Origin: an uncultured Mycoplasma sp.
GTDB lineage: Bacteria; Bacillota_I; Bacilli_A; RF39; UBA660
Reading direction: 5' to 3'
Length of the DNA stretch: 59,481 nucleotides
NCBI GenBank assembly: GCA_947646115.1
Contig: CANSFH010000004.1
Coordinates: 1-59,481, forward strand
Part shown: piece after piece, positions 36,716 to 37,513 of the stretch
Layout of the letters: the number at the start of each line of letters is the position of its first letter
How positions within the stretch are numbered: the stretch's first letter is position 1
The notes under the pieces: generated by a model
Told to the model about the DNA's origin: nothing
Database searches by the model: none
The model's input: only the letters and a program-made list of their open reading frames with translations
Translations under genes and position numbers: made by a program

Positions 36716-37513
36716 TTATTTTTGTAAATTTTGATGCTCTATTTCATAATCAAGAGGATTCCATATTTTTTCAGGTATTAAAACCATTATTACTTTGGCT
36801 TGATTATTATTAGAATCAATTTCTACATTCAAAACTTTAAATAAACTGCCACTATTTATTAAAAATTCATTTTGACTTTCGGAATAACTTAAAGAGTCAT
36901 TTATAAGTGCCATTCCATCATCAGAATCAGCAGATATTAAATATTCTATTTCGATATTACATAAATCTCCCCACTCTGGTTGTTTAGAAAAAAAACTTGT
37001 CTCTTGTAATAATGATGTACTTGTAAAACCTTCTTCATAAAAATATCTTCCTATTAATAAAGTTAAATCACTTAAAGAATTAATTCCATAACTATAAAAA
37101 TTACGAATACTAGTGCCACGATATGTTTTAAAATTGAAACCTAAAGATGTTGATTTAAATAATATCTTCCTAATATCATCTGCTAAAGCGTGAGCTTCAT
37201 TTTTTATTTCATCAGTTAATACTCCGCTTTTATCATAATCCCAATAGCCTCTTAAAATTGGATTTACGCGTCTAAAATCTATTCCTGTATATCTAATAAT
37301 CTTATCCATTTCTTCTTGAGATAATTTTCTGATAAAACTATTTAGATATTCTTTAAAATTTTCTTCTAAATCTTTTCTACTACTAAAAGTAACATAATCT
37401 TCTCTACTTAATTTATTTATATATGATTCAATAATCTCTAATTTTTCTTTTCCTATACATTCAAGTAAATAATTAGTTGTGTAATTTGTACCCTTTTCCA
37501 TAAAATTAATCAC
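36716..37513 (-). CDS. ADP-ribosyltransferase, VIP2/C3-like R-S-E clade
   Basis: YT...VNPILRG, TYRG, GFTSTS, SQNEFLI (QxE). Confidence 0.88.
   Translation of the reverse strand: MINFMEKGTNYTTNYLLECIGKEKLEIIESYINKLSREDYVTFSSRKDLEENFKEYLNSFIRKLSQEEMDKIIRYTGIDFRRVNPILRGYWDYDKSGVLTDEIKNEAHALADDIRKILFKSTSLGFNFKTYRGTSIRNFYSYGINSLSDLTLLIGRYFYEEGFTSTSLLQETSFFSKQPEWGDLCNIEIEYLISADSDDGMALINDSLSYSESQNEFLINSGSLFKVLNVEIDSNNNQAKVIMVLIPEKIWNPLDYEIEHQNLQK

Follow-up and report, generated by a model that had tools for sequence, protein, structure and literature searches.

A leaderless mono-ADP-ribosyltransferase gene without a linked antitoxin in a variable slot of reduced-genome gut Bacilli

The gene and its catalytic motifs

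A mono-ADP-ribosyltransferase gene, here called the ART, was found in a 59,481-nucleotide stretch of DNA (the window; contig CANSFH010000004.1, assembly GCA_947646115.1) from an uncultured Mycoplasma sp. of the order RF39. The source genome (G000) is a metagenome-assembled genome of 1.23 Mb that is 91% complete. We confirmed a minus-strand open frame at 36716..37513, within which translation almost certainly starts at ATG 37501 (261 amino acids) rather than at GTG 37513, because the deposited gene call is 261 amino acids long, MEKG is the commonest N-terminus in the family, and the start codon (GTG) of the orthologue in the related genome G009 is equivalently placed. The features of the gene are listed below in 261-residue numbering, with conservation counts taken over 174 aligned family members and ARTT denoting the ADP-ribosylating turn-turn loop.

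36716..37501, minus strand: ART coding sequence, 261 amino acids plus stop, a single-domain PF03496 mono-ADP-ribosyltransferase
37250..37291, minus strand: alpha3 NAD+-binding motif Y71...V79-N80-xx-L83-R84, with Y71 at 37291-37289, N80 at 37264-37262 and L83-R84 at 37255-37250 (Y in 168, N in 171 and R in 166 members)
37214-37243, minus strand: family-specific alpha3/4 loop W87-D-Y...G93-x-L-T96 (W in 167, G in 168)
37118..37120, minus strand: catalytic arginine R128 in Y-R-G, on beta1 (R in 171)
37013..37021, minus strand: S161-T162-S163 motif (S in 169, T in 169, S in 144)
36884-36886, minus strand: aromatic residue Y206 of the ARTT loop, upstream of QNE (Y in 138)
36866..36874, minus strand: Q210-N211-E212 at the end of the ARTT loop, E212 being the catalytic glutamate (E in 169)

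The Pfam model PF03496 (ADPrib_exo_Tox) matched residues 55-243 of the 265-residue translation of the open frame (E = 2.2e-14, 53.7 bits vs a cut-off of 23.4), and a search of the protein against NCBIfam gave no match. The intact R (YRG), STS and QxE (QNE) motifs named in a first-pass annotation of this DNA can all be read directly in the sequence. They are accompanied by the alpha3 motif, defined as Y(alpha2)-(I/V)N-xx-LR(alpha3) and NAD+-binding in C2/C3-type toxins (Lugo and Merrill, PMC6628389). Judged by its conserved residues, the ART belongs to the PF03496 (C2/C3) class of mono-ADP-ribosyltransferases with all NAD+-binding and catalytic elements intact, and it is predicted to be competent. 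The N-terminus is of low hydrophobicity, with a maximum 12-residue Kyte-Doolittle mean of 0.41 over the first 60 amino acids and no 19-residue window above 0.55, and a hydrophobic leader is absent from 173 of the 174 family members. These data bear out the earlier reading that there is no signal peptide and support an R-S-E type enzyme that probably stays in the cytoplasm.

The slot, its neighbours and its history

Six of the 25 genomes in the genus carry the ART family. In the five genus members whose contigs reach a flank, the gene occupies a slot bounded on one side by a divergent ABC-transporter substrate-binding gene and on the other by the core operon p390-p253-p95-sepF-divIVA. It is the sole gene in the slot in G004 and G009; the slot is empty (200 nt) in G012 and G017, where the p390 promoter is intact; and in G019, G007 and G020 the cargo comprises a HipA-like kinase, an AAA_14/DUF4143 ATPase and DUF6273 surface proteins. 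The slot (window 36620-38120; L026 5800-11200; L029 5200-9850; L030 4650-6600) is variable genus-wide between the substrate-binding gene and p390, and in sister species it holds a HipA_C-type kinase, the AAA_14/DUF4143 ATPase and one or two membrane-anchored DUF6273 proteins of 430-730 amino acids or, in some, 200 nt without genes. At one edge of the slot in L034 (2801-5879), two serine recombinase genes (198 and 520 amino acids) lie beside a truncated 157-amino-acid ABC substrate-binding gene directly upstream of the ART, which suggests that a mobile element may have inserted there.

Across the order, 19 of 301 genomes carry the ART family, spread over 12 of 127 genera, and its neighbourhood differed in each of the 12 genera sampled, with no neighbour gene recurring between genera. 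More distant members lie beside VanY, a polysaccharide deacetylase, a GNAT gene (Onthousia-type), radA and ruvC (in a record titled Saccharibacteria), S1 and IF-2, or RNase Y and DedA. In the Candidatus Onthousia-type genomes (L036 5570-6777; L037, L038, L064, L065), 6 nt separate the end of a gene for a 138-amino-acid GNAT acetyltransferase from the start of the ART, a spacing that suggests a lineage-specific two-gene operon. Judging by the match between such GNAT-ART neighbourhoods, the GTDB family of G000 appears to include Candidatus Onthousia. A functional tie to sepF and divIVA was rejected, as that adjacency is inherited within one genus and the gene lies elsewhere in other genera.

We found no partner for the ART at a distance either. 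An unlinked eraser was rejected because neither an ADP-ribosylhydrolase (ARH, PF03747) nor a macrodomain (PF01661) was detected in G000, and ARH occurrence across the genus does not track that of the ART. The enzyme does not look like a type VII secretion system effector: WXG100 genes were missing from the ART-carrying genomes G000, G004 and G009, and the protein has neither LXG nor any other Pfam N-terminal domain. More than 25 ART neighbourhoods contained no gene resembling the B component of a binary toxin, and the ART itself lacks an adaptor, duplicated or translocation domain. A PADLOC search with the ART returned no match, so we also set aside membership in a known defence system. Together these results support an ART that stands alone, with no apparent linked antitoxin, dedicated immunity protein, eraser or secretion partner. 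The first-pass annotation had likewise proposed that no antitoxin is linked, and the neighbourhood survey agrees, since no gene is conserved beside the ART across genera and its upstream neighbour, p144, is separable from it. Its further suggestion of an anti-phage, exported or regulatory effector fared worse: none of these could be shown, with no PADLOC match and no secretion route found.

The other features of the slot are as follows.

37526..37553, minus strand: weak sigma-A-like promoter candidate for the ART, TTGCAA-16-TAAAAT (9/12 matches)
37560..37581, minus strand: AT-rich 9-bp hairpin with a U-run, probable terminator of the upstream p144 (-12.7 kcal/mol, z = -3.15)
37586..38020, minus strand: p144, an all-helical protein of 144 amino acids starting at ATG 38020, independent cargo
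36635..36663, minus strand: strong promoter of the downstream core operon, TTTACA-17-TGcTATAAT (11/12, with TG extension)

One alternative makes the ART a toxin paired with p144, or with an unlinked gene, in a toxin-antitoxin or effector-immunity system. In G000, L001 and L060-62, p144 is the same-strand gene immediately upstream of the ART; it could have persisted without the ART in L056-58 as an orphan antitoxin, since such genes often survive the loss of their toxin; and the related ARTs Lmo0066 and Bxa have immunity proteins. Against this, p144 is confined to the closest relatives and is missing beside the ART in G004, G009, G020, L034 and all other genera, so that each gene occurs without the other. 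It also has a promoter of its own, a perfect TTGACA-17-TATAAT at 38074-38046, and is separated from the ART by the terminator-like hairpin. (The 162-amino-acid frame listed for it, from TTG 38074 and spanning window 37586-38074, is really 144 amino acids long because that TTG is the -35 box of this promoter.) Its AlphaFold2 model is all-helical (pLDDT 80) and matches no family or fold, known immunity proteins and erasers included. In comparison with its L001 homologue, p144 is near-neutral (dN/dS, the ratio of nonsynonymous to synonymous change, ~1). We therefore rejected p144 as an obligate antitoxin and, G000 having neither ARH nor macrodomain, consider a paired toxin very improbable.

How the ART is transcribed is less clear-cut. 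The first-pass annotation had given the gene its own promoter after a terminator; both elements exist, the promoter being weak and the hairpin only a probable terminator. TTGCAA-16-TAAAAT is weak evidence when taken alone because of its 9/12 score and because 3.9 kb contained 35 promoter-like sites where chance predicts 23. The candidate is nevertheless kept in relatives, including the deletion variant L056, and the orthologues in G004, G009, G020 and L034 each have their own upstream -10 box and ribosome-binding site. The hairpin (37581-37560), which a G+C-based terminator scan did not flag, is conserved in L056 and L060. Downstream, the separate promoter proposed for the following genes was confirmed at 36663-36635, and its conservation at both occupied and empty sites of relatives makes it a fixed edge of the variable slot. 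The 3' flank of the ART contains no terminator and folds comparably to shuffled sequence (z = -0.68), so the monocistronic unit suggested earlier is only half shown, and the ART transcript may run on toward the next operon's promoter. No riboswitch or other RNA element near the ART was matched in Rfam.

The ART is an old resident of this slot. Its G+C content is native (24.8% vs 26.4% for the window), and its identity to five orthologues, relative to that of p390, is 64/89, 53/73, 50/73, 45/76 and 42/76%. Because ART identity drops in step with that of its neighbour, we interpret this pattern as vertical descent with faster change. In the comparison with the L001 relative, the ART has a dN/dS of 0.28, and p390, p95, sepF, divIVA and two ABC genes have values of 0.03-0.11. 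The ART changes roughly three times as fast as its neighbours, yet under purifying selection. A close relative (L056 4146-4391, a metagenome contig) has lost the coding sequence in a clean deletion of ~720 bp, the scar of which retains the upstream hairpin, the promoter, a mutated ribosome-binding site (AAGG to AAAA) and the last ~50 nt of the ART; decayed copies were also found in G544 (in-frame stop) and L041 (truncated to 169 amino acids). The native composition, the divergence that tracks the neighbours, and the deletion scar and decayed copies show, at the level of sequence comparison, an ancient, selected but dispensable accessory gene that has been repeatedly lost from a variable slot, rather than the insertion into a core region that had been proposed. 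Neither a set of 50,697 phage records nor IMG/VR contained a close homologue. The only matches among the phage records were actinophage VIP2-like genes at ~26% identity, and with its native G+C the ART was rejected as a phage moron or prophage remnant. In the adjacent operon, the middle gene p253 (window 34670-35431, minus strand) is also fast-evolving, with 31-52% identity across the genus and dN/dS of 0.5, in comparison with 73-97% identity for p390 and p95 on either side of it.

Fold and family

The AlphaFold2 model of the ART, built with 25 homologues, had a pLDDT of 92.8 and a pTM of 0.90. Foldseek against the PDB returned C3cer, C3bot, C3stau, Certhrax, Plx2A, 8za7_B, VIP2, CDTa and C2-I at E ~1e-11 to 1e-12. 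The C3 exoenzymes, Certhrax, Plx2A, the Lmo0066 ART and phage VIP2-like or MuF ARTs were roughly equal as fold matches, the ART of the Listeria 'ART-ARH' pair (Lmo0066; 8za7_B) reaching a TM-score of 0.82 on target. Among viral fold models (BFVD), the best matches were VIP2-like, MuF-fused and Alt-type phage ARTs. The family profile searched against the PDB placed Certhrax first (1e-11, 48 bits), followed by the Lmo0066 ART (9e-8) and then VIP2 and C3cer. Residues ~42-118 form a canonical alpha-lobe with the alpha3 motif, and the additions to the core, residues ~1-40 (two helices) and 244-261 (one helix of ~18 amino acids), are modelled as packed. Of the N-terminal ~65 residues previously suspected to be an autoinhibitory add-on, only the first ~40 are thus extra, the rest belonging to the alpha-lobe.

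At E < 1e-30, an exhaustive profile search yielded 102 representative clusters, almost all of which are single-domain and 245-330 amino acids long; in total the family comprises at least 170 clusters of about 230-330 amino acids, single-domain. The next-best profile matches were giant or MuF-fused phage proteins, whose high whole-protein scores add up 2-10 tandem domains. A single domain reaches 30-59 bits, on par with Certhrax at 48, so we rejected the idea that the family is closest to phage MuF-ARTs and instead treat it as a separate branch of PF03496. On these comparisons the family appears distinct within PF03496, patchily distributed in reduced-genome gut Bacilli, with a long form on further contigs. 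Searches of the literature on Lmo0066 and Saccharibacteria ARTs revealed nothing on it.

Several of these relatives have unusual architectures. The long-form subfamily of 280-327 amino acids (P0056, P0057, P0060, P0064, P0076, P0085, P0093, P0106 and others; L050, L053, L054) carries at its N-terminus an acidic extension that contains a short conserved motif, roughly PW..L....(V/I)xF(A/S)G(E/D), which raises the question of a targeting or export role. Long-form genes sit among housekeeping genes, with type IV pilus genes nearby in one contig family (L050-52). The giant proteins P0139 (3371 amino acids), P0143 (3020), P0151 (7334) and G485:C32 (a 6816-amino-acid open frame) contain 9-10 tandem alpha-lobe matches (profile positions ~45-135), and the phage MuF proteins P0153, P0174 and P0181 each contain 2-3 complete tandem ART domains.

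The residue two positions before the catalytic glutamate varies across the 174 members (Q in 127, E in 34, and L, I or other in ~13; Q 73%, E 20%), so the label QxE fits the ART itself and not the whole family. The first-pass annotation had assigned the QxE class and cited C3-type and pierisin/ScARP-type enzymes. The QNE motif stands, whereas the top 50 PDB fold matches and the profile matches included no pierisin, ScARP or Scabin-type enzyme, their best being C3, Certhrax, VIP2, C2-I, CDTa and Vis.

This variation also bears on a second alternative, that the ART is a stand-alone abortive-infection effector held inactive by its terminal add-ons or by low expression, triggered by phage infection, and acting by ADP-ribosylation of an essential host factor or by depleting NAD+. 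Only the catalytic glutamate is invariant while position -2 varies, and NADase chemistry would tolerate such variation, judging by C3 Q212 mutants. The slot is a hotspot in which sister species hold a HipA-like kinase, an AAA_14/DUF4143 ATPase and variable surface proteins; the cytoplasmic location, patchy distribution, recurrent loss and fast evolution relative to neighbours would all suit such a role as well. Yet the ART has no PADLOC match and no sensor domain, its ~40 N-terminal and ~18 C-terminal extra residues being modelled as packed helices; long-form lineages carry the gene inside housekeeping operons; and we know of no precedent for defence by a single-gene R-S-E ART. We regard this alternative as rather improbable.

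The structural matches point to a further alternative: a host-directed toxin similar to C3 or Certhrax that would reach host cells when the bacterium lyses, for example after uptake by phagocytes, or through an unrecognised export route. Its substrate would be something that bacteria lack, such as a Rho-family GTPase, actin or vinculin, so the producer would need no immunity, and the missing immunity gene is then explained without further assumptions. The best structural and profile matches (C3cer, C3bot, C3stau, Certhrax, Plx2A, VIP2 and CDTa) target eukaryotes, and the ART shares the C3-like QxE and ARTT aromatic residue. All carrier record titles that name a source say animal gut, the others naming none, and the conservation of the target-facing loops would suit a eukaryotic target that is itself conserved. 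However, characterised C3 exoenzymes are Sec-secreted, whereas 173 of the 174 members here are without a signal peptide, and no B component, type VII secretion marker or translocation domain was found. In some lineages the ART overlaps housekeeping genes, as in radA-ART-ruvC and RNase Y-DedA-ART, and one carrier record is titled Saccharibacteria, cultivated members of which live on other bacteria. (The gene is not widespread in the lineage of that genome, being carried by only 1/201 of the class and 1/121 of the family.) We consider a host-directed toxin unlikely on balance, while giving it serious weight.

Possible role and comparison with known systems

As a mechanism, we suggest that NAD+ would be held by the alpha3 motif (Y71, N80, R84), R128 and S161-T-S, that E212 would activate the ribose, and that the ARTT loop (Y206...Q210-x-E212) and the alpha3/4 loop (W87...G93) would present the acceptor. 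Because at least 12 genera tolerate the ART without an antidote, it is probably neither a promiscuous toxin nor the toxin half of a toxin-antitoxin pair; such tolerance would imply an enzyme that is highly specific, benign or held inactive. The promiscuous ART Bxa of the gut commensal Bacteroides stercoris, by comparison, needs two immunity proteins, a hydrolase and a binding protein (PMC11699363). The family-wide conservation of the ARTT and alpha3/4 loops argues for one conserved macromolecule as the target rather than a fast-evolving phage protein, and intracellular action is favoured because no export route is visible. Our preferred reading, offered tentatively and at a little under an even chance, is that the ART carries out specific, non-lethal ADP-ribosylation of a conserved bacterial component inside its producer, as a conditional or regulatory modifier. 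The hotspot location and fast evolution point to a possible use in conflicts with phages or mobile elements, in which the enzyme may confer a benefit in the manner of phage Alt/Mod enzymes.

Several points weigh against this reading of an intracellular modifier. Every one of the closest relatives that have been characterised (C3, Certhrax, VIP2, Plx2A) has a eukaryotic protein as its target, which favours the host-directed alternative, and the ART matches no PADLOC or other defence family. Presence in 6% of species is patchy, which is unusual for a regulator. To our knowledge, no R-S-E ART acts in its own cell without an eraser except DraT, which has DraG. As G000 is only ~91% complete, an unlinked immunity or eraser gene could fall in the missing 9%, and the partner searches are blind to a non-canonical immunity protein.

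Sorted by target, a bacterial or invader molecule inside the cell approaches an even probability without reaching it, and a eukaryotic host target met after release by lysis is unlikely, if far from negligible. Some other role has a small chance, and NADase activity or a small-molecule acceptor a smaller one. The most detailed version of the preferred reading, an endogenous, eraser-free ADP-ribosylation switch that would act in its own cell on one conserved bacterial macromolecule, possibly also keeping out phages or mobile elements as a one-gene defence, and that would be no exotoxin, is doubtful when taken as a whole.

Characterised C2/C3-type ARTs are secreted toxins aimed at eukaryotes, phage-delivered enzymes, or antibacterial effectors that need an immunity protein, and judging from its genes and neighbourhoods the ART family fits none of these three groups. 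Its catalytic residues appear to have been long kept in a predicted cytoplasmic, antidote-free protein across many gut-bacterial lineages, which suggests either a very specific target harmless to the producer or a hidden mechanism of control or export. The target of the ART would tell whether commensal small-genome Bacilli ADP-ribosylate themselves, their phages or their animal host; practical value is modest until activity is shown.

Of the secreted toxins, the C3 exoenzymes (C3bot1/2, C3lim, C3cer, C3stau/EDIN, C3larvin) are like the ART in being single-domain R-S-E enzymes of similar size without an immunity gene, with the same alpha-lobe and beta-core fold (Foldseek E ~3e-12, TM-score 0.7-0.8 on target), and the ART has their alpha3 motif, STS, ARTT aromatic residue and QxE. 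It differs from them in lacking a Sec signal peptide, its N-terminus being modelled as packed helices, in its ~40 extra N-terminal and ~18 extra C-terminal residues, and in sequence (~17-22% identity); moreover, QxE is unfixed in its family (E, L or I occur too), and it resides in commensal small-genome Bacilli, not in a pathogen or phage. The catalytic domain of Certhrax (Bacillus cereus G9241; PDB 4fk7, 4fxq), the best solved-structure match to the family profile, shares a QxE-type motif, and the alignment reaches the helices N-terminal of the core, from ART residue 15 onward. Unlike Certhrax, the ART has no ~230-amino-acid lethal-factor-like delivery domain for a B component and no B-component gene nearby, and unlike the A components of binary toxins (VIP2, iota Ia, C2-I, CDTa) it has no N-terminal adaptor or duplicated domain and no B gene. 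The nearest fold and sequence relatives of the ART (C3, Certhrax, VIP2) also set it apart from pierisin, ScARP and Scabin.

Phage MuF-ART toxins (including EFV) and VIP2-like and Alt-type enzymes resemble the ART as leaderless ART domains, and theirs act in the bacterial cytoplasm. In addition to the per-domain scores and top BFVD matches given above, the ART matches phrog_3895 and phrog_595. Unlike the MuF-ARTs, it has no MuF (PF04233) domain and no prophage context, its flanks being the sepF-divIVA operon and an ABC transporter. A small immunity open frame usually comes after a MuF toxin (PMC5576092), and no such conserved frame lies beside the ART. The same difference, the lack of a conserved adjacent antitoxin or immunity gene in the ART family (within a genome 91% complete for G000), separates it from DarTG, CmdTAC, Tre1-Tri1, Lmo0066-ARH and Bxa-BAH/Bsi. 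The antibacterial ARTs Lmo0066 and Bxa need an adjacently encoded ADP-ribosylhydrolase, a binding immunity protein or both (PMC11699363). With these two systems, Lmo0066-ARH (PDB 8za7) and Bxa-Bsi/BAH, the ART nonetheless shares the same fold and a leaderless catalytic domain, and with Bxa of Bacteroides stercoris it also shares a home in a gut commensal.

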